Source: Polyangiales bacterium
Lineage (GTDB): Bacteria > Myxococcota_A > Polyangia > Polyangiales > Ga0077539
Direction: 5' to 3'
DNA: 64,000 bases
Assembly (NCBI GenBank): GCA_044229975.1
Contig: JBGARZ010000028.1
Span: 33,492 to 97,491, forward strand
The notes below the pieces were generated by a model. That model was not told the DNA's origin. It did not search any database and saw nothing but the letters and a program-made list of their open reading frames with translations. Position 1 is the first letter of the stretch, and each line of letters opens with the position of its first letter. The translations under genes were made by a program, and so were the position numbers. Positions 7,855-36,332 of this stretch are shown here, in pieces.

Positions 7855-7958
7855 GCGGACACCATTGGGGTTGCAGGGAGGAGGAGGGCAGGGCTCACCA
7901 GTCCTATACCGACAACGGCGCTTTCGGGCGTCTCCCTCGAAGGCGTAACGTCCTTTCC

Positions 7959-11444: not shown

Positions 11445-12722
<1,278 letters not shown>

Positions 12723-12772
12723 CGGTGTTCCTCTTCCTTGTGGGTTATCGGTTGTGGGTTGTGGGTTGAAGG

Positions 12773-14359
<1,587 letters not shown>

Positions 14360-14363
14360 GGCG

Positions 14364-14436
14364 GTGTCAATGTCAGTCAAATCATCAACCTGCTCAATTC
14401 ACGGCTGTCAAAGCCTGTCATTGACAAGTGTTGACT
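14364..14436. promoter_or_regulatory. Divergent aceBA/regulator control region with TGTCA/TGACA motifs
   Basis: TGTCAA at 14365 and 14406, TGTCAG at 14371, palindrome TGTCA-T-TGACA at 14416-14426; locally AT-rich. Confidence 0.55.
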
Positions 14437-14453
14437 GGTAAAGACCGTCGGTC

Positions 14454-15914
14454 ATGGCCGAGCGAATTGCAGTCAAGCGTCCGGATGCGCCGCGGTTGGG
14501 GGAGAAGGTGCGGGCCCTGCGCCGCCAGAAGGAGATGTCCCAGACGCAGCTCGCCGAGCGGCTGGGCATTTCGGGTTCGTATCTCAACCTCCTCGAAGCC
14601 AACAAACGGCCGCTCTCGGCGACGCTTCTCCTCCGCGTCGCGTCCGAGCTCGGCGTCGACCTCGGAACCTTCGCCAACGAGTCCGACACCCGTGCCGAGC
14701 AGGCGCTGCGCGAGGTGTTCGGCGATCCCCTCTTCGAGCCGCACGCGTTGACCAACGCCGACGTCCGCGAGCTGGTCGAGGCGTCACCCAACGCCGCGCG
14801 GGCGGTGCTCTCGCTCTACCGCGCGTACCGCAGCGCGCGCGAGTCGACGGACACCATGGCCGCGCGCATGAGCGACGAGGAGGCCGACGTGCTCGCGCTG
14901 TCCCGCGCGCCCACCGAGGAGGTCAACGACTTCATCCAGGCGTGCAACAACCACTTCCCGACGCTGGAGGAGCGGGCCGAGCGGCTCGTGCGCGAGGAGA
15001 AGCTGGAGGGCGACGATCGCTACTGGCGCCTCGCCGATTGGCTACGACGCACGCACGGCATCGAGGTGAAGGTCGAGCGCCTCGTCGACGAGCGCGGCAC
15101 GTTGCGGCGCTACGACCGGGCCACGCGACGGCTCACGCTCTCGGAGCTCCTCCCGACCCGGAGCCGATCGTTTCAGCTCGCGCACCAGGTCGGGCTGCTC
15201 GACCAGAAGGCCGAGCTCGACCGGCTCAGCCACCACGCCATCCTCACCTCGCCGGAGTCGCGGGCGCTCGCTCGCGTGGCCCTCGCGAACTACTTCGCCT
15301 CGGCGGTGCTCATGCCCTACACGGCCTTCCTGCGCGCGGCGATGGACGAGCGCTACGACCTCGACGTGCTGGGGCGGCGCTTCCGGGTGGGCTTCGAGCA
15401 GGTCTGCCACCGCGTCACCACGCTGCGCCGCGAGAAGGCTGCCGGGGTGCCGTTCCACATGATCCGCATCGACGTCGCGGGAAACATCTCCAAGCGCTTC
15501 TCCGCCTCGGGCATCGGCTTCGCCCGCTTCTCCGGCGCCTGCCCCAAGTGGAACGTCTTCTCCGCGTTCAACACCCCCGGGATGATTCGCATCCAGGTGT
15601 CGGTGATGCCCGATGGCCACCGGTACTTCTGCCTCGCGCGCACGGTGCAGAAGGAGGCCACCGGGTACTTCAACCAGCACCCGTTGCAGGCCATCGGCAT
15701 CGGCTGCCGCATCGACCAGGCCGGGTCGCTCATCTACGCCGACGGCATCGACCTCACCAACGACCGCATCGCCATCGAGGTGGGCGTCACGTGTCGGAGC
15801 TGCGAGCGGAGCGACTGCGCCCAGCGGGCCCACCCCTCGGTGCGTCACCCGCTGAGCATCGACGAGAACCTCCGCGGCCCGACCATCTACACGTCGTCGA
15901 CGTCTCGCGGCTGA
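14454..15914 (+). CDS. ramB: RamB/ScfR short-chain fatty acyl-CoA regulator (XRE-HTH)
   Basis: HTH LAERLGISGSYLNLLE, FQLAH, ANYFA, VGFEQVCHR, AGNISKRFS, C-terminal CRSCERSDCAQRA; divergent from aceBA. Confidence 0.85.
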   Translation: MAERIAVKRPDAPRLGEKVRALRRQKEMSQTQLAERLGISGSYLNLLEANKRPLSATLLLRVASELGVDLGTFANESDTRAEQALREVFGDPLFEPHALTNADVRELVEASPNAARAVLSLYRAYRSARESTDTMAARMSDEEADVLALSRAPTEEVNDFIQACNNHFPTLEERAERLVREEKLEGDDRYWRLADWLRRTHGIEVKVERLVDERGTLRRYDRATRRLTLSELLPTRSRSFQLAHQVGLLDQKAELDRLSHHAILTSPESRALARVALANYFASAVLMPYTAFLRAAMDERYDLDVLGRRFRVGFEQVCHRVTTLRREKAAGVPFHMIRIDVAGNISKRFSASGIGFARFSGACPKWNVFSAFNTPGMIRIQVSVMPDGHRYFCLARTVQKEATGYFNQHPLQAIGIGCRIDQAGSLIYADGIDLTNDRIAIEVGVTCRSCERSDCAQRAHPSVRHPLSIDENLRGPTIYTSSTSRG

Positions 15915-19815: not shown

Positions 19816-20130
19816 CCCGCCGAGCAAGCACCCGCCTACGCCCTCGGTGGACGTCCGAAGGGACGCGAGCGCTTGCGTCCGACGCAGGCATGCTCGCCAG
19901 ACTCTCCGAGGCCGCGGCGACTCGGGAGGTAAGGCGAAGGACCGGCATCCAGTCATTTCAACCACTTGAAAGATTGTTGTCGAATGTTCTTGACTCGGTT
20001 GGAGGGGGGGGGCGTACAGGCCCAAGATCGAGGGTCAGAACTCTCTTCGTACATGACGATGGTCGGGGGCGGTGCCGGGGGCATGGCATCCCCATCGGTG
20101 TTGCCCAGTCGCCTTCGTGGGAGGTCGTGA

Positions 20131-20511
20131 ATGGCATTCAATCGATTCTTTGATGAAGAGATCGGACGCGCGGCGCAACTGAGCTGTGTCAACGACGGTG
20201 CCATCGCAGACGCAAAAGCGTACGGTTTTGAACTGGACGATGAGGCCGAGGACTTCTCCGGCATCGCAGCCGGCATCTACGACGCGTTCCTCAAAGAGAT
20301 GGACGCGGGGAAGACGGTGCTCTTCCGGGTTCGGAGGGTTGCCGACGGAGAGGAACATCTGGTGACACCGACCGATACTCCGATCGTGCTTTCGATGTTT
20401 CCGGGCAGCGTCGTCGCGAGGATTCGATTCATGCCCGGCAAAAAGGTGCTGACCGCGCGGCTGCTCTCGGGCACTGGCACTCTCTATCTTGTCCCAATCG
20501 TCCCATTGTGA
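20131..20511 (+). CDS. Hypothetical small beta-rich protein
   Basis: GGGAGG RBS; ends LTARLLSGTGTLYLVP, reminiscent of small phage virion proteins. Confidence 0.7.
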   Translation: MAFNRFFDEEIGRAAQLSCVNDGAIADAKAYGFELDDEAEDFSGIAAGIYDAFLKEMDAGKTVLFRVRRVADGEEHLVTPTDTPIVLSMFPGSVVARIRFMPGKKVLTARLLSGTGTLYLVPIVPL

Positions 20512-20550
20512 ATCCAAGGCTGAGGGGCAACTGCGCACCGGAGCACAAAT

Positions 20551-20913
20551 ATGGCCACTAGCATCATTCGGGTCACCAAGGGCATCCAGCGCGTAACGTC
20601 AGACGGGCTGGTTGGCATCGATCAGGCGGTCGATGTGACGGGCTATCATACGGCCCGGCTGGCCTTGAAGATTATCGGAGTCGAAAACGCTGACTCGCCT
20701 CATCTCGTGGTCGCCATTCAGACCTCGATGACGCTGGATGACCCAGACAACGCTCCTCTCCTCGGTGGCTTCGTATTCTCCGAAGAGAAGGGGCTCGTGA
20801 TGGTGCAGACCTTCCCCGGCCTGCTCCGTTATTTGTGGTTCAACGCGTCAGAGTTCGAGGGAGAGGGCGCCGACGCCTTCTCTTTCAGCCTCGAAGGGCT
20901 CGTCTACGACTGA
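20551..20913 (+). CDS. Small putative jelly-roll protein, paralog 1
   Basis: Shares QTSM..DD, GLLRY and F.LEG motifs with the next two ORFs; GGAG RBS. Confidence 0.8.
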   Translation: MATSIIRVTKGIQRVTSDGLVGIDQAVDVTGYHTARLALKIIGVENADSPHLVVAIQTSMTLDDPDNAPLLGGFVFSEEKGLVMVQTFPGLLRYLWFNASEFEGEGADAFSFSLEGLVYD

Positions 20914-20997
20914 CCGGCCGGCGACATCGGATTCCCCCAATGCCGACGGTCTCGAAGGCGTCGGCCCAACGTCAACAGAAAGCGAAGGAGCAAGACC

Positions 20998-21360
20998 ATG
21001 GCTGGACAACCCATCAACATCACCCGCGGTTCGACCACCCTTTCGGCGACAGCGTCGCAGTCCGCCAAAGAGGCCATCGACCTTCAGGGCACTAGCGGGC
21101 TCCGCTTCGACTTCGCCCTACGGGGTTACTTCATCAGCGGTTCGGGGGCGAGTGTCACGGTGAAGGTGCAGACCTCGATGTTCAACGATGACAATCCCGG
21201 AAATTGGGTTGACCTGGCGACCTTTGGCGCGGTGACAGGCTCCAACGTCACGGAGGTCAGCAGCGTTGACTCCGGGGTGCTGCGGTACCTCCGCTACGTC
21301 GCCACGCTCAATGCCAACACCACGAGCTTCACCTTCGAAGTTCAGGGCATGGCCTGGTAG
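20998..21360 (+). CDS. Small putative jelly-roll protein, paralog 2
   Basis: VTVKVQTSMFNDD..WVDLATF..GVLRYLRY..FTFEVQG; AAGGAG RBS. Confidence 0.85.
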   Translation: MAGQPINITRGSTTLSATASQSAKEAIDLQGTSGLRFDFALRGYFISGSGASVTVKVQTSMFNDDNPGNWVDLATFGAVTGSNVTEVSSVDSGVLRYLRYVATLNANTTSFTFEVQGMAW

Positions 21361-21366
21361 GCTGTC

Positions 21367-21714
21367 ATGGAGGCCGTCATCCGCTTCACGGAGAAGCCGC
21401 AGTGGGTGACGGCCACGGGGCCGTCGTCCTCGTGGGACGTGATGAGCTTCGTGAACTTCCGCGGGCTCGAGCTGTCGCTGCGGCTCGTCGGGTTTGAAGG
21501 CGCGAGCGATCCGGTGCTACAGGTCGCCATGGAGACCGGGATGAGGTTCGACGAAGACTTCGCGCCGCTCGGGCGCTTTCTCCCGCTGGTGATGCCGGGG
21601 GAGGTCTGCACCCGTCGCTTCGAGGGCCTGCTCCGCTTCGCCCGTTGGAACGTGGTGCAGCTCGCTGGAGCGACCGCGGCGTGCTTCGTCCTCGAAGGCA
21701 AGGCGCTGCCCTGA
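21367..21714 (+). CDS. Small putative jelly-roll protein, paralog 3
   Basis: VAMETGMRFDED..GRF..FEGLLRFARW..FVLEG. Confidence 0.8.
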   Translation: MEAVIRFTEKPQWVTATGPSSSWDVMSFVNFRGLELSLRLVGFEGASDPVLQVAMETGMRFDEDFAPLGRFLPLVMPGEVCTRRFEGLLRFARWNVVQLAGATAACFVLEGKALP

Positions 21715-21739
21715 CGGGCTGGTCGCAGGGAGGTCGTCG

Positions 21740-23830
21740 ATGTCGCTGTTCGATTCCATCAACAAGGTCATCGATGTCACCGCCCATGGGGTGAGGCCCG
21801 GCGCGCCGGGAGAAGCGCTCGTCGACAACACCGCGGCCTTCAACACCATCATCAACCGAGGCGGTAGCGACGGACTTCGGGTGAATACGGCGGGCTTCAG
21901 CCCTCCGTTTGTGGCGCCCCAGTACCGGGGTACGCTCTACCTGCCTCCCGGACGTTACCTGTTCCGAACGGACCCCGCCATAACGCTAAATTGGCTGATC
22001 AACTTCGCCAATGAGGTTGGCGTCAACGGCACGTTCAGGCAGGAGATGCAAGACGCGCAGCAAGCTCGGCTTGCGCGGCCGTTTGGGGATTCGGTGCGCT
22101 TCCCGGAGGGCACGACTTTGTGGCTGGCACCTGGCGCGGTCCTGGTCCCCGAGCGTGGCTGTGTCGTCGATATATCTTCGTTGCTCATCTGTGGAGATGA
22201 AGGCTGCTTTGATCTCTCGCTCGGTGGCCTAGTCGTGTTCGGTCGAGCCGTGCCCGTTCTCCGTCCGGAGTGGTGGAGGGTATCTAGTCCAGCTCGGAGC
22301 GGCGTTGAGGACGTCGGTGACTCTGCGGTCATTCAATACGCGATCGACGCCGCAATCCACAATCGATCAATTGTCTACCCTTTCGTGTATCCGCAGTACG
22401 TCGTGGCTGGTGGGCAAAACGTTCTATCCCGCTGGTATCGGGGCGAAAAGAGCATTCGGCGACCATCGTTGGTCGTCGAGTTTCGTGGCGAGTACACGTT
22501 GCAGCAGACCGTCAACGTTCGCGCTGACGCCCTTCACAATGGGATCTGGTTGCAGCGTAGGACGCCAGGTAACACTTCCGACTCCCTGCCGAGCGGCGCG
22601 ACCAGCTTCACGCGAGACGGTATCGCTAGTTCCGAGGCCGCGACCGTGCTCCGCGGCGTGTGGAACGGAGGCCGCTTTCGTGGGGCGACCTTGAACGCGG
22701 GCAAGCGATTGGGCGAAAATCCCCTGTTGCGGCTGACCTTCTGTCAAGGCATGACGGTCGAGAACCTCACCTTTGTGTGTCCATCGGGCGGCTATCAGCC
22801 CGGCATCGAGTTCCGAGCGTCGTCGGTCGAGGAGTTTGGTGGAGCTTTCCTGGCAGCAGCGCAGGACATCGCGGTTCGACAGTGTCGCTTTGACGGTACT
22901 GCCCAACCGATGGTGCAAGTCGGCGCTCGAACCGAGCTGTTCACTGGACGACCTCGCCTGACTGAACTCCCGTACGCGATAGGCCGCAACGATGCCGGCA
23001 CGGACCTCTCCCTGCTGTCTTTCGAGGACTGCGAGTTCGTGCTCTTCGACCGTGCGATCGGCATCGATGTGAGGGCCAACCAGTCTTTCGCGATGCGATA
23101 TACGCGCTGCGATTTCAAGGGAGGCGCGGCGGCGATGCTGTCACTGTGGGGAGGCTCGCACTACCTGCATGGCTGCCGCTTCTTCAACAACTGGCGGGTG
23201 CCATCCAGTACGCCCCTGCCGAGCAACCCTACGGATAGCCGCGGGTTCGAACTCCCCGACTCGTCAGACTTGTTCCTGCGAGCGGAGCTTCCGATGTTGG
23301 TCCCCGCAGCGGTGGCCGCCCCTCGCGGGGCACTCGCGGCCTACACTCGCCTGGCGTTATCGAGCCCAGGTGGTCAGGCCGTCGTCGTGACGAATCAAGA
23401 CTTCCTCCCGAGCGTCCTGACCCTCGGGTGCGTGTCAGACAGCGTTCAGTTTCTCTCCACGGTTGCACCGGGCCCCCTTGTCTCTGCTCAGAATGCTGAC
23501 TGGCCTGTGGTGCTGGTGGGCACCCGTCATCGGGCGCCTTCGGGCTCGGTTGCTCCTTCCGTGCGCTGGGGGCTCATCAACACCGCGAGGGTGGCGACTC
23601 GGGGACCCGACTCGAGGCGCGACATGAAGCGCGGGGGGCCGTTGGCCATCGTGGGAGGGTTCTATTCGGGCGGAATGTTCGTCCTTCGAGCGGCATGCCA
23701 GAGCGCGGTCGTGGGCGCGAGGATGGGAGTCACCCCAGGCGTCTGGATGGAGGGTGGAGCCAATCCTGTCGGTAGCTGGCCGGCGACGACGGTCTTCGGT
23801 CTCCGTGCGGATCAGGGGAGACCCCTGTAA
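21740..23830 (+). CDS. Tailspike/pectate-lyase-like beta-helix protein, paralog A
   Basis: IDVTAHGV..DNTAAFN..GTLYLPPGRY; second cap RPEWW..DSAVIQYAIDAA; periodic ..C.F. coils; no signal peptide. Confidence 0.72.
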   Translation: MSLFDSINKVIDVTAHGVRPGAPGEALVDNTAAFNTIINRGGSDGLRVNTAGFSPPFVAPQYRGTLYLPPGRYLFRTDPAITLNWLINFANEVGVNGTFRQEMQDAQQARLARPFGDSVRFPEGTTLWLAPGAVLVPERGCVVDISSLLICGDEGCFDLSLGGLVVFGRAVPVLRPEWWRVSSPARSGVEDVGDSAVIQYAIDAAIHNRSIVYPFVYPQYVVAGGQNVLSRWYRGEKSIRRPSLVVEFRGEYTLQQTVNVRADALHNGIWLQRRTPGNTSDSLPSGATSFTRDGIASSEAATVLRGVWNGGRFRGATLNAGKRLGENPLLRLTFCQGMTVENLTFVCPSGGYQPGIEFRASSVEEFGGAFLAAAQDIAVRQCRFDGTAQPMVQVGARTELFTGRPRLTELPYAIGRNDAGTDLSLLSFEDCEFVLFDRAIGIDVRANQSFAMRYTRCDFKGGAAAMLSLWGGSHYLHGCRFFNNWRVPSSTPLPSNPTDSRGFELPDSSDLFLRAELPMLVPAAVAAPRGALAAYTRLALSSPGGQAVVVTNQDFLPSVLTLGCVSDSVQFLSTVAPGPLVSAQNADWPVVLVGTRHRAPSGSVAPSVRWGLINTARVATRGPDSRRDMKRGGPLAIVGGFYSGGMFVLRAACQSAVVGARMGVTPGVWMEGGANPVGSWPATTVFGLRADQGRPL

Positions 23831-23838
23831 GCCGATCG

Positions 23839-25800
23839 ATGCGCGAAGAGAGGTGTCGAGTGGTCAAGCGATCCGGCGGGCGGCGATGGTGTGCTTTGGG
23901 TGCGACTCTGCTCTTTGCCGGGTGCTCGAAAGAGGCGGCGAGCCATGTGGCGCACGACGCGTCTGTCGATCGGTCAGCCGTTGCCGTGGACGTTTCGGAC
24001 ATCGCCGGGGACGTCTCGGACATCGGCGAGGACGTTGCCTCGTCGCCGGACGCTGGAATCGATGTGGTGACGCCCCGTGACGACGGACGCCGTGATGTTG
24101 TCGTGGTTCGCGACGCTGGGTCTCGCGACGCCGGCGCTATCGTCCCAGTGGACCTCGGGCCGGCGCTGGAGGTTCCCCTCGATCCGATGGGTGTTCCGGC
24201 ACCGGGAAGTGAATGCACCGGAGATGCGGGCGTGCGACCGGGCGACCCCAGCATCGCGCCACCGCGACCTATCCTGCCGCAGTCGGTGTCGCGAGTCACC
24301 TCGCAGAGGCCGTCGTTTCGCTGGGTGCTGCCTGAGGGGACAACGGGCGCGCGAGTCGAGGTCTGCGCCGACCGATGCTGCGTACGGGTGATCCAGACGC
24401 TGGAGGCCGAAGGGACGACGGTGCGGCCAACAACAGCGCTGCCGCCGGGGGTGGTGTATTGGCGGATGTTCGGCCGCCGGGCGGGGATGACGGGGTCGCG
24501 GGCGTCCTACACATGGGAGTTCGAGGTGCGGCGAAGGGACACGCCCGTCGACTCCAGTTGGGGGACGATTCGGGACTTCACGGGGGACGGGTATGACGAT
24601 CTGTTGATGCGGGCTGATGATTACAATTCCGACGGGACACGATCACTATACGTTGTAGAAGGAGCGCTGGGCGGGCCGAGGCCGCCGCGTTTGATTGCTC
24701 AGTTGAACGTCGTCCCATACCTCGGTCGGGCGAAGGTGGGCGATTTCAATGGCGATGGTCGCGCAGACATCGCCTATTATTCAAGTGACAGTGAGCATAG
24801 CGTAGTTGGAGTCGTCCAAAGTGAGGCGGCTGGATCACACCGCGCCTTCTCGATTGGATTCCCTCGTGCGGAGCAAATTGGGATGAGCGGACCGACAATA
24901 GTGGACTGGGACGGTGATGGATACTCAGATCTTGTGGCCACAGCCTATAGTCGGCCAGTGGACGACTTCTGGGGATCTCTGTTGCTGATCTATCGGGGAT
25001 CGCCGAGCGGGCTTTCTGCCCGTCCGCAGTCGATCGCCCGAATGTCGACACGTCTAGGTCCGTTGATCTATATCCACGGATCTGTTAGCGACGTTGATAG
25101 TGATGGTTATGGCGACATCATGATTGCGTATCTGGCGGGTAACGGACGACACCTTGGTTATTCGCTGGTGTTTGGCGGCGAGCAGGCGGCGGTTCGTTCT
25201 GAACCCCTCTGGTCGACGGCGGTCCCCGATGGATTAAGCGATGGCCAGGCGCTGTTGCAGTGTGTCGCGGATGTGGACGGCGATGGCCAGGGAGATCAAG
25301 TTGTATCGCTTTTGGGATCGCCCGGATTCTACCTCTTTCGACATGCATCGGGGTTCGACGTGCCATCTTCGTTCATGTTGGCACCGCCAACCGCCGGAGG
25401 AGCAGATTTCGGATTCATCGTAGAGCCGACCGACCTGAACGGTGATGGTTTCGCCGACCTACTCGTGAGGTCGTCCAGCAGCGCGACCGAAACCTGGGGA
25501 ATGACTGGTTTCCCGTTCAACGCCGGACGCATGTACGTCTACTTTGGCGCACGAGATGGCGTGTTCGCTGATCCAATCTGGTTTGACCGGATGCGACCGA
25601 CGGATCCTGCCGACAACCCGCGTGCCTTCGCCGCGACGGTGCTGTCTCCGGGGGACCTCAATGGAGATGGCTTCGACGACGCGGCGATAGGTGATCTCTC
25701 GCGACGCGCGTGTTGTTACGTGATGGGAAGCACCAGTCCGGTGGGGTCGCATCTTGGCGGATGTCTCGCGATTCCTGGACACGGCTTGGATCTCTACTGA
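23839..25800 (+). CDS. FG-GAP/VCBS repeat lipoprotein
   Basis: LLFAGC lipobox; repeated DFNGDGRAD, DWDGDGYSD, DLNGDGFAD, DLNGDGFDD; AGRMYVYFG. Confidence 0.85.
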   Translation: MREERCRVVKRSGGRRWCALGATLLFAGCSKEAASHVAHDASVDRSAVAVDVSDIAGDVSDIGEDVASSPDAGIDVVTPRDDGRRDVVVVRDAGSRDAGAIVPVDLGPALEVPLDPMGVPAPGSECTGDAGVRPGDPSIAPPRPILPQSVSRVTSQRPSFRWVLPEGTTGARVEVCADRCCVRVIQTLEAEGTTVRPTTALPPGVVYWRMFGRRAGMTGSRASYTWEFEVRRRDTPVDSSWGTIRDFTGDGYDDLLMRADDYNSDGTRSLYVVEGALGGPRPPRLIAQLNVVPYLGRAKVGDFNGDGRADIAYYSSDSEHSVVGVVQSEAAGSHRAFSIGFPRAEQIGMSGPTIVDWDGDGYSDLVATAYSRPVDDFWGSLLLIYRGSPSGLSARPQSIARMSTRLGPLIYIHGSVSDVDSDGYGDIMIAYLAGNGRHLGYSLVFGGEQAAVRSEPLWSTAVPDGLSDGQALLQCVADVDGDGQGDQVVSLLGSPGFYLFRHASGFDVPSSFMLAPPTAGGADFGFIVEPTDLNGDGFADLLVRSSSSATETWGMTGFPFNAGRMYVYFGARDGVFADPIWFDRMRPTDPADNPRAFAATVLSPGDLNGDGFDDAAIGDLSRRACCYVMGSTSPVGSHLGGCLAIPGHGLDLY

Positions 25801-25809
25801 GAGGTTAAG

Positions 25810-27737
25810 ATGTCGGACGACTACGGATCAGAACTACGCAACGTTCTCAACGGTATTCTGCCTGATCAACGACCTCTGGCGGCCGACGTCACCTCCTACG
25901 GACCTTCCATATCGAGCGTGTTCAGGTCTCTCGCTCGCATCGTCTCGGATCCGGTGGGTGGCACCACTGGCACGCCACCTCAGATTCTATATTTTCCGCC
26001 TGGGCGCTATGTACTAAACCGTAGCCCCGAACTTAACGCGGAGACATTTACGGTTCCCAAGGAGTCGAACTCTTCTTTGCCAATGACGCCATTCTCCGCG
26101 TCGGCCCGGGCGTTACGCTGGTGATCGCCGGGACGATCCGCGCAGGTCAGCAACAGATCTTCGGCTTCAATCGCTTCGAGATATCAGGCCGTTTCGATCG
26201 CGAAGGCCGTTTCGATCCGGCGGGCAGCAACCTTCGACTCGGCGTGTCGTTCCCCATCCCGAACGGCATGGTACCGGGTGTACCTGCGACGGTCACCTGG
26301 CCGGTCGGGGTAGTCGATGAGTCCGGGCGCCGGGTACCCTGTGGACGAGTCGTGATCTCCAGCGACGACGTTCCGCTGGTCCGTCCCGAGTGGTGGGGCG
26401 CCCGTGCTTGGGATGTGTCAGAGATCCAGGCGGCGACCACACCGCCTGCGGGCCACGACTCCTGGGATGCCTTTCAGGGTGCGATCGACGCGGCCTGCAT
26501 CGGACGTGCGGTGCGAGGTCGGCCCCCGATCCCCATCGCATTGACGGGGCTGTACCAGATCGTCCGCGCGTTGGAGATCCGTCCGCCGACGGGCCCGAGT
26601 GGGGCCTTGATTCCCACTTGTCTGGTGTGGCGTGGGACTGCGGGTTTGCGTAGTCGGCTGGCCACTGTGGCACGCAATCCTTTGGCGGCACGCACCAAAC
26701 GTGGGCAACCCGCCGAGGTCCTCTTGCGGTTGCATCCAGGGGTTGACTTCGATCTTCGGGACGTCAGCCTCAGCACCGACTTGAACATCGATGGTGTGAT
26801 CGAGGTCGTCTGCGACGATAGCGAAGCTTCGGGACGACGGGGCCTCCTGAAAAGAGTCACTCTCACCGGAACCGCAGCACAGTTTCTGTTGCGAATCGTC
26901 GAGACGGGTAACTCGACCGCGCGTCGTCAGTTTGTTGTTGACAGTTGTGCCTTGGTGCAGATTCCCAATCTTCCATGTCGCCACGACGTGCAACTCGACA
27001 CCGGCCCCGGGGTCATGCTTCGAGTCAGCAACACGCTGATGGGACCGCCTACGCAACCGAACGAAGTTCTGCAGTTGACTCCCGAGGCCATCGGCCACGC
27101 GACCTGCCATCTGACAGGAGGAGCCGCGCTGTTGGATTCGCTGTTGTTCCACCAGGCGCTAGGGCCGCGTCCGTCGCGCGATCCCCCGCTGCTCGACGAG
27201 CCCGATGGTCAAGACATCTTCCTCGGAGCCCCGAGCAAGGGTAGTGGCCGTCCGGCGACTCAACTGACGGTCATGATGTGTGAGTCGCAGGGCTTCTGGC
27301 TGCTTGGACGCGATTCTAACGTGACCCGGGCTCATCAAGCGGTGTTGCTCGGTGTGGCTCACTACCTGTCCGTTGATGCGAGGAACGATCTCCGTTGGAC
27401 TGAATGGACCAGGCAGCCGCCGCCAACGGAGGCGCAAGCGTCGTCGCGCATGGTCCCGAGCGTGGTCTGGCGAGGGGCGGTCGGACAGTGCGTAATGATC
27501 GGATGTCGGCTGGGGATGTCGATGGTGCTAAGTGAAGCCGATACCATCGTGAACGTGGCGACGACCTTCAACAACCTGGATGTAGGGGATAGCCGCAAGT
27601 TGTACCTGCGTGAAGAGCACATGGTTCGGAGGGGGACTGGATACACGCACCCCGACCTCGCGATGGCATCCAACACCTTCGACGGTGCCGTGCGGCACCT
27701 GGTGCCTATCCTCGAAGACGGCAGGATGGTGCGATGA
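25810..27737 (+). pseudogene. Tailspike-like beta-helix paralog B, split by a frameshift near 26056-26060 (ORFs 25810-26124 and 26121-27737)
   Basis: Frame 1 gives LYFPPGRY..TFTVP; the -1 frame continues QGVELFFANDAILRVGPGVTLVIAG, matching FPEGTTLWLAPGAVL and IPSDVTMAFAPGAVL in the paralogs; RPEWWGA..DSWDAFQGAIDAA. Confidence 0.75.
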
Positions 27738-29260
27738 CACTCGGGGCATTTTTCAGTCCCTTCGGCGACAGCGTCGGGAGTGAGTCTGGGTTTGAGGACA
27801 GCATCCGTCTGCGGGATACGTTGAGCTTCATGACAAGCGAGGCGAGCCGCAATGCCCCACTGATTCTGTGGGTCTCGCGCTCCGCCCGTCTCTTGATGCC
27901 TATCGACTTCACGATTCCGAGCGATGTGACCATGGCGTTCGCCCCCGGCGCCGTGCTCACCGTTGGCGAGGGTGCCACGCTCGACATCGCGGGGCGCCTC
28001 GACATCGGTCCGGGCCGTCACTTTCAACGTAACGGAGGGCGGATCGTCCTGCGCGGACCCCTCGATGAGATCGACGCCTCATGGTGGGCGGACGAGCGTT
28101 CGAGGGGCACGTCAGTTGTCGAGGCGCTTGACGTCCTGTGGGACCGCTATGAGCGCAGCTTGCCCCAGGCGCCGATCGTTCTTACCGGGCCCTACTGGTT
28201 GGAAGAGACGCTCCGAGTGGTCCCTCCCGAGTCGCTGGTTCCGGCATCCGGTCTTCCCTTCGACGTGGTGATGCGAGGTCGGCACTATGGTCGGAGTAGC
28301 CCGACGACCTTTGGGGTGAGCGCATCCAAGTCGGTCGGTGCCCTCGATGCGCTGGTCGCGGTGGACGGCACGGTGGTGCTCACGCTGGAGAACATCGGTT
28401 TCGATCTCGCTCGTCCGGAGGGCTTCCCGGCGGTGCGTGCAGCGCTGCTGCTCACGGGCGCATACGACCGCAGCCGCATCGAAGCGTGTACCTTCCGGCT
28501 GGCTGGAGGCACGGGCGTTCATGTGACGACGCTCTGGGACGTGTGGCGTCAGGTCACGGGCGAGGTGCCCAACAGCTTCACGGGCCTGGAAATCGCTTTC
28601 GCTCTCCCCGTGCTCGAGGCGAGAGCGACCCGGCAGGCCAGTAGGCTCGTCATCGCGGGCTGCGATTTTGAGGGCGGCGATGGGGCCAGCGTCGGCGTAC
28701 GAGTCGATCTCGTGGCTCCGACCATGCTCGACGTCTCGGACTGCCTGTTTCGCGGGGCATACCATCGCGGCATCTCCTTCCCTAGTGCTGACCTGATGGT
28801 GACCAACTGCGCCTTCGACAACACGACCACAGCGACGACGACCGAACCGTTGCCCGCGGTGGACATCTTCCTCGGTTCCCGAGAGCGCCTGCCGGATGGC
28901 TTTACCCGGTTGGCTGGAGCCAACGCTCAGTTCACCGCAACCCACTGTGTCTCTACCAGCCCGATCTTCCTTGTGGCGCAACGGGTGTTCCTCCCGGGCG
29001 ACTCGGGTGGCGCAGTGCTTACCAACGTCCTTCACCAACCTCGCCTGAGGGCCAGTGACGCAGAGGCGACCTCTATCCAGTTGATGGGCGCGTACGAGAG
29101 TCGCAGCCTGGTGCTTCAGGGGTGTGAACTGGGTGGATCGGTGCGCTTCGTCAGCGTGTCGGCGATTGGAGTCGTGGTCGAACTCGGAACCCGCTTCGCT
29201 ATCGGCGTCGTTCCTTACGTCGGCTTGGCCAATGCCATGGTGGGCCTCGAAGCTCCGTGA
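27734..29260 (+). CDS. Tailspike-like beta-helix protein, paralog C
   Basis: FAPGAVL, IDASWW, IEACTF/IAGCDF/VSDCLF/VTNCAF coils, DIFLG; ATGA overlap with the previous gene. Confidence 0.72.
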   Translation: MTLGAFFSPFGDSVGSESGFEDSIRLRDTLSFMTSEASRNAPLILWVSRSARLLMPIDFTIPSDVTMAFAPGAVLTVGEGATLDIAGRLDIGPGRHFQRNGGRIVLRGPLDEIDASWWADERSRGTSVVEALDVLWDRYERSLPQAPIVLTGPYWLEETLRVVPPESLVPASGLPFDVVMRGRHYGRSSPTTFGVSASKSVGALDALVAVDGTVVLTLENIGFDLARPEGFPAVRAALLLTGAYDRSRIEACTFRLAGGTGVHVTTLWDVWRQVTGEVPNSFTGLEIAFALPVLEARATRQASRLVIAGCDFEGGDGASVGVRVDLVAPTMLDVSDCLFRGAYHRGISFPSADLMVTNCAFDNTTTATTTEPLPAVDIFLGSRERLPDGFTRLAGANAQFTATHCVSTSPIFLVAQRVFLPGDSGGAVLTNVLHQPRLRASDAEATSIQLMGAYESRSLVLQGCELGGSVRFVSVSAIGVVVELGTRFAIGVVPYVGLANAMVGLEAP

Positions 29261-29327: not shown

Positions 29328-31232
29328 TCAGCCTCGCGAAGCCCGACGCCGTCGCCGCACGCTCGCGACCACCGCCAGCGCCGCGACGCACAGCCCGCCC
29401 GGCACGCTTCCGCGCCCGCTCGTCGGCCCCGCGCTGCACCCGCCTTCGAGCGCGCCCGTCGTCTCGCTGACCTCGTCGCCCACGAGCCCGCCGTCCGTCT
29501 TCATCGGCGTCTCATCCCCCGCATCGGGCTCCTCGACCACCGTGCCCGCGTCGACTTCCTCACCCGCGTCCGCCGTCACCACCGGTACGTCCACCGCCGC
29601 CGGCGGAACGTCCCTCGTCGGCGTCCCGGCGTCCGCGACCGGCGCCACCGCGCGCGGGCTCACCCGCACCTGGCAGCGCGCGTCGGTCTCCCCGCCAAAC
29701 CACGTGACGCTCTCCTGCAACGGCCCGTAGGTCTCCGTCAGCGTCGTCGGGGTCGCCACGTCGGGGATGCCCAGCACGAAGGAGAACCGCCCCACCGCGC
29801 CCGGCGCCGTCGCGCGGTCGACGCCCGACGGGCGGTTGCGCGAGACCCAGTTCTTCTCGTCGAAGAAGGTGCCGTTGTGGTCGCGCGGGCCCGTGGTGCC
29901 CAGCCGCGTCGACGCGATGGCCCACGTCGCCGTCCCCGTGTTGCGGAACTCGAACCATGCCACCGGCCGCTCGCCCGACGTCGCAGTCGTGGGGCAGCTC
30001 GCGCCCACGAAGGTCGCCGCGTAGGCGGGCGTCGTCGGCGTCGGAGGCGCCACGCTGCCGTTGCCGCGGACGAGGTCGAGGTAGTGCGACCAGTTCCACC
30101 CGGCGCCGCCGTTGCCGGGGTCGGTGTGGCCGCCCGCGCCGCCGCAGTTGGTGGCGTTGGTCGCGCACGGCGCCCCGCTCCCGCTCCGCGGAACCTGGTA
30201 GTGCCCGATGATGTGCGCCCGATCGATGGGGATGCCGTAGCGGTCGCAGATCGCCCTCGTGAGGCGCGCGCTCGCGACGTACATCGCCTCGGTGTACCAG
30301 CGGCCCGGGTCGGCTACGTAGCCCTCGTGCTCGATGCCGATGGAGCGCTGGTTGATGTTCCAGTTGCCGGCGTGCCACGCGGTGTTGGAGTGCGCGACCA
30401 TCTGCGTGATCTCGCCGTCCGACGAGCGGATGTTGTAGTGCGCCGACGCTCCCGCCGCGGGGTTCTGAAACCACGACGTGCTGCCCGAGTAGGAGCCCTG
30501 CATCGTGTGGATCACCACGTACTGGATGCTCCCGCCCGTGCGCCCCGCGGTGTAGTTGCTCGTCGACGCGGGCACCCAGCGCGCGGGCCCGTAGTCGGCG
30601 CTCGCGGACACCGCCTGCGTCACCCCGAGGCGCGCCTCCGCCTGCGGGAGTGACGGGTGCGCCGCGACGCGAATACCCTCGCCGGTAAACGCCCGTCCCG
30701 ACACGCCCGACCGCAGCACACCAAACACCTGCGACGCGTAGGACACCTGCATCACCCGGTCGCGCAGACCCGAGTAGCGCGCCACGGCCTCGGCCCAGGT
30801 CGCGAGATCATCGGGGTCGGCGCCGGTCTGCTCACCGAGTTCTGCGAGCACCGCGGCGGCGCCCGCCACGCCGAGGCCCGTGTTGGTGCGCAGGGCCTCG
30901 TCGCCAACGCCCAGGAGCGCCCGCGCCCGCGCGGCGGTGTCGATGGCGCCCGTCGCGCGGAGGTGCAGCGCGCCGAGCTCGACCTGTCCGTGCGCCTCAT
31001 GCGCGCTCTCGTCAGTGTGATCGTCGACGACCACCGGGTTGCCGAAGCGCGTCTCCGACCAGGCCACCGCCGCGAGCAGGTCGCGCGGGACTTCGTAGGC
31101 CGTCGCCGCGCGGGTGATGGCCTCGTCGAGGGTGACCGCCCCGGCGAAGGTCGCTGGGTCGACCGGAGCGCGCCCACAGCTCACCAGAAACAGGGCCGAC
31201 AGGGGGAGGGCGAAGCGGAGCCTTGAGCGCAT
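29328..31232 (-). CDS. N-acetylmuramoyl-L-alanine amidase (Amidase_2) lipoprotein with lysozyme-like N-region, Ig-like module and MYXO-CTERM-like tail
   Basis: VVIHTMQG, ASAHY, AWHAGN, SIGIEHEG, IIGH, HTDPG; LLAAVAWSETRF; GGCS + TM + RRRRR. Confidence 0.9.
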   Translation of the reverse strand: MRSRLRFALPLSALFLVSCGRAPVDPATFAGAVTLDEAITRAATAYEVPRDLLAAVAWSETRFGNPVVVDDHTDESAHEAHGQVELGALHLRATGAIDTAARARALLGVGDEALRTNTGLGVAGAAAVLAELGEQTGADPDDLATWAEAVARYSGLRDRVMQVSYASQVFGVLRSGVSGRAFTGEGIRVAAHPSLPQAEARLGVTQAVSASADYGPARWVPASTSNYTAGRTGGSIQYVVIHTMQGSYSGSTSWFQNPAAGASAHYNIRSSDGEITQMVAHSNTAWHAGNWNINQRSIGIEHEGYVADPGRWYTEAMYVASARLTRAICDRYGIPIDRAHIIGHYQVPRSGSGAPCATNATNCGGAGGHTDPGNGGAGWNWSHYLDLVRGNGSVAPPTPTTPAYAATFVGASCPTTATSGERPVAWFEFRNTGTATWAIASTRLGTTGPRDHNGTFFDEKNWVSRNRPSGVDRATAPGAVGRFSFVLGIPDVATPTTLTETYGPLQESVTWFGGETDARCQVRVSPRAVAPVADAGTPTRDVPPAAVDVPVVTADAGEEVDAGTVVEEPDAGDETPMKTDGGLVGDEVSETTGALEGGCSAGPTSGRGSVPGGLCVAALAVVASVRRRRRASRG

Positions 31233-31312
31233 GGGCGCACGATGCCAGCAATCACCGTGCCCCGTCACGGCGCCCTCGGAGCAACACCACGGTTGGGGTA
31301 TAGGTCCCGCCC

Positions 31313-33273: not shown

Positions 33274-33297
33274 GGCGTTCGGGTATAACGGCTCGCG
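33274..33297. promoter_or_regulatory. Putative bidirectional leaderless promoter
   Basis: Only 24 bp between divergent ATGs; TATAAC (+) and TATACC (-) each lie 8 nt from their ATG. Confidence 0.6.
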
Positions 33298-34494
33298 ATG
33301 CGACACGCACTCCTGACCGAGCAGTGGTTCCCCGGCATCGGTGGTTCGATCCAGCTCTTCGACGCGCTCTACGGCCAGCACCTGCCGCCCGGCGACTCGG
33401 TGCACATCATCGCGGGCGGCCCGCCCCGCAGCGCGGCCCACGACAAGACCTATCCGCGGCCCGTCACGCGCTTCGACGACACGCGCTACCCCTGGATGAA
33501 GCCCGAGTCGGCGGCTGAGTACGCCCGCATGGTGGCCGCCACCGCGTGGGTCTGTCGTCGTGAGCGCATCGAGGTGCTGCACGCCGCGCGGGTCATCCCC
33601 GAAGGCATCGTCGCCATGGCCGTCGGTCAGTCGCTGAAGATCCCCTACACGGTCTGGGTGCACGGCGAGGAGGTCTCGCTCTTCATGCGCTACGCGGTGA
33701 AGAAGAGGCTCATGCCGCAGGTGTTCAGCCGCGCGCGGGCGGTGTTCGCCAACTCGTCGTTCACGCAGGGCAAGGCGCTGCTTGCGGGTGCTCCGCCCGA
33801 GCGCCTGCACGTCATCAACCCGGCCGTCGACGCGGCGGCGTTTGCGGGCCCCTTCGACACGGCCGACCTCGTCGAGCGCTTCGGCCTCGCGGGCAAGACG
33901 GTGCTCCTCACGGTCGGTCGCCTCACGCGGCGCAAGGGCCACGACAAGGTGCTCGCGGCGCTGGCGAAGCTTCGGCCCGCCGGGCTGCTCGAGGGCGTCG
34001 TGTGGCTCGTCCTCTCCGACGGCGAGCTCGAAGAGGAGCTCAAGAAGACCTGCACCGCGCTCGGCCTCGACGACGTGGTGCGCTGGGTGGGTCCGGTCTC
34101 GCGCGACGCGCTGCCGCGCTACTACGCGGCCGCGGATGTGTTCGTGCACCCCAACCGCACGCTCGATGACGATGACGTCGAGGGCTTCGGGATGGTCTTC
34201 CTCGAAGCGAGCGCGTCGGGGCTCGCGGTGATCGGTGGTCGGTCGGGCGGCGTGGTCGACGCGGTCGAGGACGGCGGCTCGGGGATGCTGGTCGACGGGA
34301 CGTCGGTCGACGCCGTGGCCGACGCGATCGCCTCGCTGCTGCGTGACCCGGTGCGGCGCGCGGCGATGGGAGCGCGCGGTCGGGCCTGGGCGCAGCGCTT
34401 CCAGTGGGGCGTGCAGGCGGCGCGGATGCGGGCGATCGCGGCGGGCGAAGGCGACCCGGGCGCGGGCGTGGACACCGCGGTCGTCACCGGGTGA
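33298..34494 (+). CDS. GT4 (GT-B) glycosyltransferase
   Basis: TVGRLTRRKGHD, EGFGMVFLEA, SGGVVDAV. Confidence 0.93.
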   Translation: MRHALLTEQWFPGIGGSIQLFDALYGQHLPPGDSVHIIAGGPPRSAAHDKTYPRPVTRFDDTRYPWMKPESAAEYARMVAATAWVCRRERIEVLHAARVIPEGIVAMAVGQSLKIPYTVWVHGEEVSLFMRYAVKKRLMPQVFSRARAVFANSSFTQGKALLAGAPPERLHVINPAVDAAAFAGPFDTADLVERFGLAGKTVLLTVGRLTRRKGHDKVLAALAKLRPAGLLEGVVWLVLSDGELEEELKKTCTALGLDDVVRWVGPVSRDALPRYYAAADVFVHPNRTLDDDDVEGFGMVFLEASASGLAVIGGRSGGVVDAVEDGGSGMLVDGTSVDAVADAIASLLRDPVRRAAMGARGRAWAQRFQWGVQAARMRAIAAGEGDPGAGVDTAVVTG

Positions 34495-34698
34495 CGGCAG
34501 CGGTCACCCGGCGCAAGCGGGTGACGGGAGGTGCGTAGATTTCTTCGCACGGGGCGGGTGCGGGGTAACGCGGCGCGGCCGAAGTTGACGCGGGTTGGGC
34601 GGAGGTGTGAGAAGCCCGCGACCCCCGGCGCAAGCCGTGCACATCAACGAGGGCTGACGGGCCGACGAGGTCCGCCGCCCACGAACGGAGACCCGACG

Positions 34699-36315
34699 AT
34701 GTCGAAGCCCAAGAAGACCACGCAGCTCAAGCAGATGGTGCAGCGCCAGGAGCTGGCGTTTCTCATGGAGGCCCACAACGGGCTGAGCGCGAAGGTCGCC
34801 GAGGAGGCGGGGTTCGAGGGCATCTGGGGCAGCGGGTTGAGCATCTCGGCGGCGCTCGGTGTGCGCGACCACAACGAGGCGAGCTGGACGCAGGTGTTGG
34901 AGGTCGCCGAGTTCATGAGCGACGCGACCACGGTCCCGATGCTGCTCGACGGCGACACCGGCTACGGCGACTTCAACAGCATGCGGCGCCTGGTGCGAAA
35001 GCTCGAGCAGCGCGGCGTCTCGGGCGTGTGCATCGAGGACAAGATCTTCCCCAAGACCAACAGCTTCATCCGCGGCGCGGCCCAGCCGCTCGCGTCCATC
35101 GAGGAGTTCGCGGGCAAGATCAAGGCGGGCAAGGACGCCCAGGCCGACGACGACTTCGTGATCGTGGCGCGCGTGGAAGCCTTCATCGCGGGCTGGGGCA
35201 TCGAGGAGGCGATGAAGCGCGCCGAGGCGTACCGTCTCGCCGGGGCCGACGCGATCCTCATGCACAGCGCGCTGCGCTCGCCGGTGGAGATCCTGGCCTT
35301 CTTGAAGGAGTGGGCCAACCGGCTGCCGGTGGTGATCGTTCCGACCAAGTACTACCAGACGCCGACCGAGGTCTTCCGCGACGCGGGCGTCTCCGTGGTC
35401 ATCTGGGCCAACCACCTCATGCGCTCGTCGCTCGCGGCGATGCAGGCGACGGCGAAGACCATCCACACCGAGCAGACCCTCCTCAACGTCGAGGAGAAGG
35501 TCGCGCCGCTCGCCGACGTCTTCCGCCTTCAGGGGGAAAACGAGCTGGAGCAGGCCGAGAAGCGCTACCTGCCGAAGCACGGTCGCTCGGTGAAGGCGAT
35601 CGTCCTGGCGGCGTCGCAGGGCGCCGAGCTCGGCGAGCTCACCCGCGACAAGCCCAAGGCGATGGTCAGCATCGCGGGCAAGCCCCTGCTCGCGCACATC
35701 CTCGACGCGTACCGCTCGGTCAACGTGAAGGAGCTGTCGGTGGTGCGCGGCTACAAGAAGGAAGCCGTCAACCTCGGCAACGTGAAGTACTTCGACAACG
35801 ACCAGTACGCGACGACGCAGGAGGTGAGCTCGCTCGCCGCCGCGACCAGCGCGCTGGAGGGCGACGTCATCGTGTCGTACGGCGACGTGCTGCTGAAGAA
35901 GTACATCCTCCAGGAGCTCATCGACACCGACGACGACTTCGTCGTGATGGTCGACGCCAACCACGCCGAGAGCCGCAACCGCGGGCGCAACGCCGACTTC
36001 GTGAGCGCGTCCGAGCCCAACTCCCGCCGCGCCTACCAGAACCTCATCACCCTCAAGGGCTTCCGCCCCGAGCGCGAGGACGAGGTGCACGGCGAGTGGA
36101 TGGGCGTCGTGAAGCTCTCGCCCGCCGGGACCAAGCTGGTGCGCGACAAGCTCGCGTCGCTGGCCGCTGAGCCCGACCGCGTCCGCACCATGAAGCTGCC
36201 CGACCTGCTCCAGCTCCTCATCGCGGACGGCGCGAAGGTGCGGGTCATCTACACCACCGGGCACTGGCTCGACGTCGACTCCGTCGAGGACGTGGTCGTC
36301 GGCGCGGCGTTCTGA
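34699..36315 (+). CDS. pepM: Phosphoenolpyruvate mutase fused to a C-terminal nucleotidyltransferase domain
   Basis: PepM signature [10 protein letters not shown] (EDKx5NS), [20 protein letters not shown]-terminal [25 protein letters not shown]. Confidence 0.96.
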
Positions 36316-36332
36316 GAGAGGCATCCCCACCG

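Follow-up and report, generated by a model that had tools for sequence, protein, structure and literature searches.

The mosaic adhesive trimer (MAT) fibres of Bdellovibrio are phage-like adhesins on the surface of this predator, encoded by many chromosomal paralogs; each joins a constant N-terminal beta-rich domain to glycan-binding tips that vary (PMC10769870). Other described proteins resemble single parts of the locus studied here. Podophage cement or decoration proteins (BPP-1 Bbp16, PDB 3j4u chain H; a Carin1 capsid chain, PDB 8cjz) are the nearest folds of its small proteins, and phage tailspikes (Sf6, HK620, Dettilon gp208, and the CBA120 TSPs) share a right-handed parallel beta-helix body with one of its large proteins, g8. 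We found no description of a cassette that combines such parts in full-text work on myxobacterial tailspike/FG-GAP proteins or on jellyroll cement/decoration proteins.

We analysed a 64,000-nucleotide stretch of DNA from a Polyangiales bacterium (hereafter, the window), in which an earlier note had proposed a phage-free operon of spike-like proteins. Our preferred reading, to which we assign a probability of roughly 0.35, is that the cassette encodes a phage-derived, envelope-associated complex predicted to bind or process a glycan. On this reading, the cassette is a chromosomal unit complete in itself and independent of phages, and its proteins have folds of the phage-virion type.

The cassette and its surroundings

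The cassette consists of eight tightly spaced genes on the + strand, which occupy positions 20131-29260 (~9 kb) and appear as nine ORFs in the present assembly. The gaps between them range from -4 to 84 nt, and GGAG-type Shine-Dalgarno motifs lie upstream of g1, g2, g3, g5, g7a, and g8. GC content per kb is 0.59-0.65 in the cassette versus 0.69-0.75 in the flanks, and GC3 is 0.60-0.90 in cassette genes versus 0.83-0.95 in nine flank genes. The ORF, gap, and GC data thus bear out the earlier note, which had described eight co-oriented, closely packed genes of lower GC with Shine-Dalgarno sites. A 315 nt intergenic region (19816..20130, + strand), between the stop of an MFS gene and the start of g1, is the putative promoter region; no consensus sigma-70 site turned up there in a scan begun at 19700.

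Twelve flank ORFs were scanned in the window, where the flanks encode housekeeping functions (ICL, malate synthase, MFS, Amidase_2, and FolD). Capsid, portal, terminase, sheath, and integrase families, which the note had also reported missing from the window, are not represented among these 12 ORFs. There is no transporter gene within the cassette, and no signal peptide was recognisable at the N-termini of the seven proteins other than g6 (judged by eye, with no predictor). Seven of the eight genes, g6 being the exception, had no match in NCBIfam or in PADLOC, the latter of which covers phage defence only.

The first gene, g1 (20131..20511, + strand), leads the cassette and encodes a 126-aa protein of unknown fold, for which Pfam, PHROG, NCBIfam, and PADLOC held no match and the ESM Atlas no usable one. 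It has just eight close homologs, all unnamed, and its position is conserved in L009, L010, L012, L015, L016, and L037. The possibility that g1 is a fourth jelly-roll was rejected (hhalign probability versus the jelly-roll family, 0.3%).

Three small jelly-roll proteins

The next three genes on the + strand, g2 (20551..20913, 120 aa), g3 (20998..21360, 120 aa; the best-conserved gene of the cassette), and g4 (21367..21714, 115 aa; immediately 5′ of g5), each encode a jelly-roll paralog of a distinct type. As the note had surmised, these 115-120 aa proteins are true paralogs (blastp g2-g4, E 1e-14; g2-g3, E 1e-5), and the family profile matches only g2, g3, and g4 in their own 10-Mb genome. Phylogenetically, g2 and L009_8665 form a clade of their own (support 97/90), as do g4, L009_9957, and L010_12087 (support 96/83). 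The three types are separate supported clades, each common to several cassettes, which suggests, at the level of sequence, that they have distinct roles. A g4-type gene adjoins a g5-type gene in L003, L009, L010, L012, L015, L016, and L037.

Fold matching placed the small proteins among eight-stranded jelly-rolls of ~120-140 aa, with phage capsid cement proteins nearest, confirming what the note had called jelly-roll-like. A search of BFVD returned 154 matches at E≤1e-3, headed by phage proteins of 110-130 aa (TM 0.76-0.78), and within 110 family members there were PHROG matches to phrog_9522 (17/110), phrog_5707 (7/110), and phrog_427 (4/110). The PHROG and BFVD matches suggest that the small family is of phage ancestry. 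The family comprises 421 representative clusters. When g3 and P0024 were run by tblastn against 50,697 phage records, nothing matched at E≤1; the PDB sequences gave no significant hit to profiles from A2, A4, A3, A7, and g5; and a profile scan of genome contigs with A3 found a single record, “MAG: Deltaproteobacteria bacterium”.

The jelly-roll fold by itself does not assign function. An Hcp-like role was rejected, as Hcp is absent among the top 50 fold matches, and so were Ena-like fibres, since the small proteins differ from the Ena (DUF3992) endospore appendage subunits in lacking the N-terminal cysteine connector. In several family members, an N-terminal jelly-roll is fused to cysteine-rich Stig1-like segments, with no signal peptide, and these fusions suggest an extracytoplasmic, oxidising destination. 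It is conceivable, if rather improbable, that Myxococcota-like bacteria possess an undescribed scaffold for assembly or export, without a capsid, whose conserved core is the jelly-rolls. Such a scaffold would have arisen from phage cement proteins and would carry interchangeable, fast-evolving payloads outside without Sec signals. In the present cassette the payloads would be beta-helix enzymes; in G306 they would be other proteins that lack annotation, and elsewhere cysteine-rich or fibre-like domains in covalent fusion.

The large beta-helix family

The large proteins are encoded on the + strand by g5 (21740..23830, 696 aa), g7 (25810..27737), and g8 (27734..29260, 508 aa). In this assembly, g7 is frameshifted and consists of g7a (25810..26124, 104 aa), its 5′ part, and g7b (26121..27737, 538 aa), which has a GTG start in a frame that is open from 26037. 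Pairwise blastp similarity is weak (g5-g8, E 5e-4; g5-g7b, E 4e-3). Homology is firm at the profile level, since iterated profiles from g5, g7b, and g8 reach the same ORFs. The three large paralogs of the earlier note are thus homologous, although the third, g7, is split here by the frameshift.

No PHROG matched g5, g7, or g8, and Pfam gave only sub-threshold matches to PF12708 and PF13229 (for g5, a weak N-terminal PF12708 match at E 0.002, under the cut-off). Fold matches identify g8 as a right-handed parallel beta-helix of the pectate-lyase-like class, with its N-terminal residues 1-110 barely covered, and g5 and g7 are assigned to the same superfamily through their profile homology to g8. 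For g8, the note's beta-helix prediction held. The top fold neighbours of g8 are epimerases, lyases, and GH28 enzymes, all of which act on extracellular polysaccharides, a further hint at a destination outside the cytoplasm. Residue conservation was computed over 18 near-full-length members of the superfamily: W117, Y154, R181, G182, C252, G341, F361, D377, S407, and S409 (g8 numbering) are kept in ≥80%, and the only polar positions kept across the superfamily are R181, D377, Y154, and S407/S409. As there is no obvious conserved acid pair across these 18 members, catalysis by the large proteins remains putative.

Orthologs of g5 share a conserved N-terminus, M-x-x-F-G-x-E-F-V-N, and a homologous motif, VELFFANDAILRVGPGVTLVIAG, is found in the g7b frame 5′ of its GTG start. 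The site of the g7 frameshift lies between ~26030 and ~26060, and an intact ortholog (L037:14588-16381) is a single 597-aa ORF. Between 6 and 15% of sampled words were present in wastewater/activated-sludge DNA runs (n=5); four DNA runs yielded scattered contigs, mostly of 151 to ~330 nt, with no indel reported and cover of the frameshift site not shown. A metagenome scan with g7b, the first such scan, returned no relative.

The g6 lipoprotein

The remaining gene, g6 (23839..25800, + strand), encodes a lipoprotein of 653 aa in which an acidic linker of low complexity accompanies an FG-GAP propeller of seven repeats. The note's identification of an FG-GAP lipoprotein is well founded: the lipobox reads LLFAGC (LLVAC in the L037 ortholog), PF01839 is matched at E 2.3e-22 in six stretches, and the calcium-type loop motif D-x-[DNS]-x-D-G occurs seven times. 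The protein also matches NF047539, the XAC2610 family, weakly (38.3 bits against a cut-off of 35, with no individual stretch above it); the repeat motif is the probable cause.

In the window cassette, g5 and g6 are separated by 8 nt, and in L012, L015, and L016, all from one genus, the g5 ORF continues into the g6 signal peptide/lipobox, a coupling of g5 to g6 that favours our envelope reading. Taken literally, this fusion puts g5 on the membrane's cytoplasmic side and counts against that reading. An intracellular alternative is a cytoplasmic or inner-membrane machine, in which epimerase- or lyase-like beta-helices would act on a nascent polymer while tethered to the periplasmic propeller. We regard this as unlikely, since the glycosyltransferases nearby belong to the high-GC flanks and do not recur along with the cassette, which has no linked polymerase or exporter, AlgE-type epimerases and all other top fold matches work outside the cytoplasm, and the destination suggested by the cysteine-rich fusions is an oxidising one.

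We also considered an interbacterial effector-immunity island, in which the beta-helix proteins would be enzymes delivered without signal peptides into the envelopes of neighbouring cells (e.g., by a T6SS), the jelly-rolls would be their loading adaptors, and g6 would protect the producer. The direct succession of signal-less enzymes and a periplasmic lipoprotein is in keeping with such an island, as are the weak match of g6 to the XAC2610 family, the fast divergence of the large proteins, the several copies in some genomes, and the presence of TssC in G000 and four of five other cassette carriers. However, TssC was not found in G011 (93% complete, with at least three cassettes) or in any of five distant jelly-roll carriers (94-100% complete), and VgrG, PAAR, Hcp, and known adaptor Pfam families are absent from the nine cassette ORFs and the 12 flank ORFs. 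Furthermore, the three large proteins would have to share a single lipoprotein, it would be odd for a toxin and its immunity protein to be fused, as g5 and g6 would be in L012, L015, and L016, and PADLOC was empty, though its library is limited to phage defence. Such an island therefore seems to us improbable.

Recurrence in other genomes

Relatives of g5 were found in 6 of 41 related genomes. Searches with tblastn revealed the same gene order in L003, L009, L010, L012, L015, and L016, and cores of large and FG-GAP genes in L011, L013, and L014, while the metagenome contig L037 carries a complete cassette. Together with the one in the window, these 10 further cassettes (L003, L009-L016 members, and L037) make 11, and the carriers are uncultured wastewater/activated-sludge bacteria, some of which hold several copies. 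The shared order is g1, jelly-roll(s), beta-helix, FG-GAP lipoprotein, beta-helix, beta-helix. Contexts differ between loci, and every flank scanned is housekeeping, with kinases, Aldedh, OmpA, and similar proteins among 30 ORFs flanking L009-L013, and Ddl, radical SAM, and phosphatase genes beside L037. The note had proposed looking for the same order away from prophages; the 10 further cassettes, with no phage gene in the flanks scanned, answer that search and contradict the notion that homologs occur solely in intact prophages.

Between the window and L037, identity is 66-88% for the small proteins, 44-50% for the large proteins, and 53% for g6, a gradient consistent with adaptors that stay conserved and specificity-setting parts that diverge. 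Across 11 cassettes, whose proteins are 25-88% identical, the gene order and most of the reading frames have been preserved, which indicates long-term purifying selection. This conservation, together with that of the paralog types and the absence of phage genes from all flanks scanned, argues against a prophage module (tail or receptor-binding) that is left over, decaying, and now without function, for which the low GC of the cassette relative to its flanks, the frameshift in g7, and several frameshifts and stops in the G002 and G011 copies might otherwise speak; the frameshifts could stem from errors in assembling long-read metagenomes. We judge a remnant very improbable.

As an alternative, the note had suggested that a phage-like particle with its genes at another locus (a GTA, tailocin, or eCIS) receives its spikes or decoration proteins in trans from the cassette. 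Virion parts typically have folds of these two classes, and RcGTA-type systems scatter their accessory structural genes. However, nothing in the genome to which the window belongs (39 contigs, 93% complete) matches Phage_sheath_1, Phage_capsid (HK97; PF05065), Phage_portal, Terminase_6N, or TerL_ATPase, profiles that do match in control genomes, and the cassette is self-contained and often occurs in several copies. The housekeeping flanks and the lack of matches to these particle families in the genome leave neither a prophage remnant nor spikes for a particle supported, and we think in-trans supply highly unlikely. Overall, the note's interpretation finds partial support, in its jelly-roll and beta-helix folds and its phage-free recurrence, but not in its spikes supplied to a particle.

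Discussion

If the cassette does encode an envelope-associated complex that acts on a glycan, the three beta-helix paralogs would evolve fast and confer its substrate specificity, whether as enzymes or as binders of a glycan that is acidic or complex. The jelly-rolls, conserved in three types, would serve as adaptors or lectin-like subunits for holding or assembling the beta-helix proteins, possibly via the conserved N-terminal peptide of the latter. The beta-helix proteins would fold in the cytoplasm in a tailspike-like manner, a path encoded outside the cassette would then take them to the envelope or out of the cell, and g6 would anchor or position the complex at the envelope. We infer the protein contacts within this putative complex, and export is assumed, given that seven proteins have no signal peptide recognisable by eye and the cassette no transporter.

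If this reading is correct, a capsid-cement jelly-roll and a tailspike-class beta-helix have been taken out of any virus and kept as a cellular system, in which virion modules, often in several diverged copies, are coupled to a propeller lipoprotein. It would be a second, differently built case, beside the Bdellovibrio MAT fibres, of bacteria using phage-type glycan recognition, and would point to an unknown release path for signal-less proteins. Three families that are unnamed in Pfam, PHROGs (as to function), NCBIfam, and PADLOC, namely g1, the small jelly-rolls, and the large beta-helix proteins, are definable from the present data. As the carriers are uncultured, any test must be heterologous.

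Comparison with known systems

Unlike Bbp16, g2-g4 have no PF21190 match at E≤1, and the likeness of the g3 family to it is structural only (hhalign probability 0.8%); PF21190 is found on merely 11% of members in the ESM look-alike cluster. Whereas Bbp16 is a phage protein, the jelly-rolls come as three divergent paralogs encoded by a cellular cassette, with no HK97-type capsid gene beside it or in the genome. Tailspikes are not the top fold matches of g8, but are tied with, or just under, epimerases, lyases, and GH28; the large proteins of the cassette match no PHROG or Pfam tailspike family, and their genes are not in a phage. To the AlgE4/AlgE6 mannuronan C5-epimerase A-modules, the Vibrio polysaccharide lyase RbmB, and GH28 polygalacturonases, g8 is 9-12% identical, with no family membership, and in contrast to these enzymes the large proteins have neither RTX-type R-modules nor signal peptides. 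With FG-GAP/integrin-alpha-type propeller lipoproteins (e.g., the XAC2610 family), g6 shares a lipobox and seven calcium-type repeats, but the cassette includes no cognate peptidoglycan hydrolase effector. Finally, the MAT proteins have signal peptides and form single long fibres, whereas the cassette assigns its constant part (jelly-roll) and its variable part (beta-helix) to different genes without signal peptides and adds a propeller lipoprotein.

Gene content and chromosomal setting of the cassette

The cassette occupies window positions 20131–29260 on the forward strand and comprises eight tightly packed genes, g1–g8, all encoded on that strand. The products of g1–g6 and g8 are 126, 120, 120, 115, 696, 653, and 508 aa, respectively, whilst g7 is present in two pieces, g7a (104 aa) and g7b (538 aa). 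Intergenic spacing ranges from −4 to 84 nt, and GGAG-type ribosome-binding motifs precede six of the starts. The GC content per kb is 0.59–0.65, compared to 0.69–0.75 in both flanks, and GC3 is 0.60–0.90, compared to 0.83–0.95 in nine flanking genes. The flanks consist of ordinary chromosomal genes, encoding isocitrate lyase, malate synthase, a ScfR-type regulator, a PMT_2 glycosyltransferase, and an MFS transporter upstream, and a convergent 646-aa Amidase_2 protein, FolD, GT4, and a PEP-mutase cluster downstream. The earlier note's description of a lower-GC cluster of eight close-set genes in phage-free surroundings is therefore accurate with respect to ORFs, GC content, and flanking genes.

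Several neighboring loci deserve mention in their own right. Isocitrate lyase and malate synthase form a glyoxylate-shunt unit beside the ScfR-type regulator, which carries HTH and M78 peptidase domains (11445–15914). A 748-aa ORF (7752–9995) contains PD40 repeats and a C-terminal match to the Toxin_12 knottin family that falls below the cut-off (E 6.5e-4). The Amidase_2 (N-acetylmuramoyl-L-alanine amidase) gene lies at 29331–31268 on the reverse strand within a high-GC stretch, and nothing equivalent to it adjoins the other cassettes. The GT4 glycosyltransferase, a PEP mutase–nucleotidyltransferase fusion, and a TPP enzyme are grouped at 33289–37478, in what looks like a phosphonate-type biosynthesis cluster.

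Small jelly-roll proteins

The claim that the cassette encodes three small paralogs holds: blastp joins g2 to g4 (E 1e-14) and to g3 (E 1e-5), which makes the three true paralogs, and no further match turned up when the 10-Mb genome was searched with the small-family profile. Thirty-three small proteins went into a maximum-likelihood tree: the three of the window, ten encoded at near loci, and 20 from elsewhere whose envelope spans 86 residues or more, shorter pieces being left aside. The g2-, g3-, and g4-types form separate supported clades (97/90, 97/96, and 96/83), each of which also takes in cassette members of a sister genome. By this phylogeny the triplication is old, and the three types are probably not redundant.

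Foldseek agrees on a jelly-roll fold. Against predicted viral structures, the small protein gave 154 matches at E ≤ 1e-3, the best of which are uncharacterized phage proteins of 110–130 aa (TM 0.76–0.78). At the sequence level, phrog_9522, which bears the annotation "major tail protein", is matched over its C-terminal domain by 17 of 110 family members (best E 1.2e-7). Sequence homology to Bbp16, the jelly-roll capsid cement protein of phage BPP-1, was not detected, either as a match to its family, PF21190, or by hhalign (probability 0.8%).

Among 1.84 billion representative proteins, the small family amounts to 421 clusters at E ≤ 1e-3 and 156 at E ≤ 1e-10, mostly stand-alone proteins of 110–130 aa, and it is present in 15 of 401 genomes sampled from the phylum. 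At the 14 distant loci retrieved, the jelly-roll gene is the only recognizably related one, and its scanned neighbors are again chromosomal; in one case (L029), the order is rpsD-rpoA-rplQ-fur, jelly-roll, a 753-aa protein without assignment, and an FG-GAP protein. A few members are N-terminal jelly-rolls, without signal peptides, fused to cysteine-rich Stig1-like segments and large unannotated C-terminal domains, or to a fibre-like Gly/Ser/Thr-rich region. With low probability, the jelly-roll core may be the mark of a new scaffold for assembly or export.

The near-complete genome G306 holds a different conserved cassette in four copies (L024, L025, L026, and L031). A tandem pair of jelly-roll genes comes first, followed by genes for a 136–170-aa protein, paralogous 265–335-aa proteins, and a 650–946-aa protein, and two of the four copies also include a GT2–sulfotransferase fusion. 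Among the members of the L024 and L031 copies that were compared with Pfam or PHROGs, that fusion is the only one with a match.

Large proteins, g6, and g1

Pairwise likeness among g5, g7, and g8 is weak (E 5e-4 to 4e-2). However, iterated profiles begun from each of them reach the same set of ORFs in relatives, so that the three constitute one superfamily and their proposed paralogy is borne out at the profile level. Pfam assigns the large proteins to no family at its cut-off, and PF13229 is touched by only two of 15 g8-type members (E 0.015). The best fold matches of g8 are AlgE6 (28.7), AlgE4 and the RbmB lyase (both 28.2), polygalacturonases (~27), the PfbA adhesin (26.6), and the Dettilon and Sf6 tailspikes (26.4). 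As modeled, g8 certainly belongs to the beta-helix class, and the jelly-roll and beta-helix folds guessed previously are both correct; these matches do not, however, separate a "tailspike" from a secreted polysaccharide enzyme. A g8 homolog (P0010; 62% identity) lies on a 5-kb contig labeled "MAG: Rhodoglobus sp.", an actinobacterial name; the contig is probably mis-binned, rather than evidence of a transfer.

A single frameshift near 26030–26060 interrupts g7 (25810–27737). We regard g7a and g7b as one broken gene because the motif VELFFANDAILRVGPGVTLVIAG, homologous to g5 and g8, sits in the g7b frame 5′ of the nominal GTG start of g7b, and because the ortholog on metagenome contig L037 (14588–16381) is an intact 597-aa ORF. 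The earlier description needs correcting on this one point: g7 is whole in L037 and frameshifted in the window, where it could be a true pseudogene or reflect an assembly indel.

The g6 product is a lipoprotein with the lipobox LLFAGC, an acidic linker, a PF01839 match (E 2e-22), and seven calcium-type motifs. No named family or known structure matched g1 in the sequence, profile, and structure libraries searched.

In the window, g5 and g6 are 8 nt apart. In three cassettes of one genus, a stopless g5 ORF runs via "…IFGLQ" into the hydrophobic segment and lipobox of g6, giving 804 aa until a further frame break (L012:8777–11188), or ORFs of 1303 aa (L015:532–4440) and 1428 aa (L016:4992–9275). 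The short gap and the read-through show, at the level of gene structure, that g5 and g6 are functionally linked. Taken literally, the fusion would place g5 at the cytoplasmic face of the membrane, although the two parts might still be separated if lipoprotein signal peptidase cuts between them or if translation starts internally. This topology, together with the AlgE-like top fold matches, favors an intracellular or inner-membrane polysaccharide-modifying complex, a reading that we consider doubtful. An effector–immunity island, which we think unlikely, would account for signal-less enzymes adjoining a periplasmic lipoprotein, and most carriers have a T6SS; however, the T6SS marker TssC was not found in G011, a genome with related cassettes, nor in five of five distant jelly-roll carriers.

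Distribution and absence of phage

Relatives of g5 occur in six of 41 related genomes, all of which belong to the same family as the window, and in several of them more than one copy is present. The order g1, small gene(s), large, FG-GAP, large, large is retained in G002 and G009 (two cassettes each), G018, and G014, whilst G011 has large-plus-FG-GAP cores with small genes. With a complete cassette on L037 and that of the window, the total is 11. One relative's record reads "MAG: Deltaproteobacteria bacterium", and the sequencing runs that contain fragments are wastewater or activated-sludge samples.

The Pfam flank scan covered, among near loci, L009–L013 and L037. There, as in the window, the flanks all differ and every one is made up of housekeeping genes. 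The same gene order thus occurs in relatives away from prophages, and homologs are not confined to prophages. As the folds also agree with the guess, neither of the outcomes named in the earlier note as refuting it has come about. That the cassette is a decaying remnant seems highly improbable to us. In the window's own genome (93% complete), Phage_sheath_1, Phage_capsid, Phage_portal, Terminase_6N, and TerL_ATPase were not matched, whereas control genomes do match. Together with the housekeeping flanks, this disfavors the earlier suggestion that the spikes are supplied in trans to a GTA, eCIS, or tailocin encoded elsewhere in this genome, which we now consider very unlikely.

Between the window and L037, identity is 66–88% for the small proteins, 59% for g1, 53% for g6, and 44–50% for the large proteins. 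Taken with what is seen across the wider small family, these values suggest a conserved handle in the jelly-roll and a variable payload in the large proteins.

Proposed function and relation to known systems

Our leading interpretation, held at a probability of roughly one in three, is that the cassette encodes a complex, derived from phage and associated with the envelope, that binds or processes glycans. Within it, the beta-helix paralogs would provide specificity or enzymatic activity, whilst the jelly-rolls of each type would serve as adaptor or lectin-like subunits and g6 as the envelope anchor. A share of probability about equal to that of the intracellular reading falls to none of the named explanations. 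The jelly-rolls may grip a peptide conserved at the N-terminus of the large proteins, M-x-x-F-G-x-E-F-V-N in the g5 orthologs, for which Bbp16 offers a possible model by analogy, its sheet being augmented by the N-terminal loop of a capsid protein (PMC3863775). This reading is weakened in that no conserved catalytic pair is evident in the large proteins, whose conserved polar residues are R181, D377, Y154, and S407/S409 in g8 numbering, and in that a cassette-encoded export route is missing.

This is a real cassette, conserved and unusual but unnamed, and it is carried by uncultured bacteria. Its parts belong to known fold classes, yet none is a sequence member of any named family, and our full-text literature search found no description of such a gene arrangement. 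The nearest concept is the mosaic adhesive trimer (MAT) family of phage-like surface adhesins of Bdellovibrio; these have signal peptides and a single-chain design (PMC10769870), unlike the cassette. The cassette may be another form of something already known in kind, namely the bacterial use of virion-type glycan-recognition modules.
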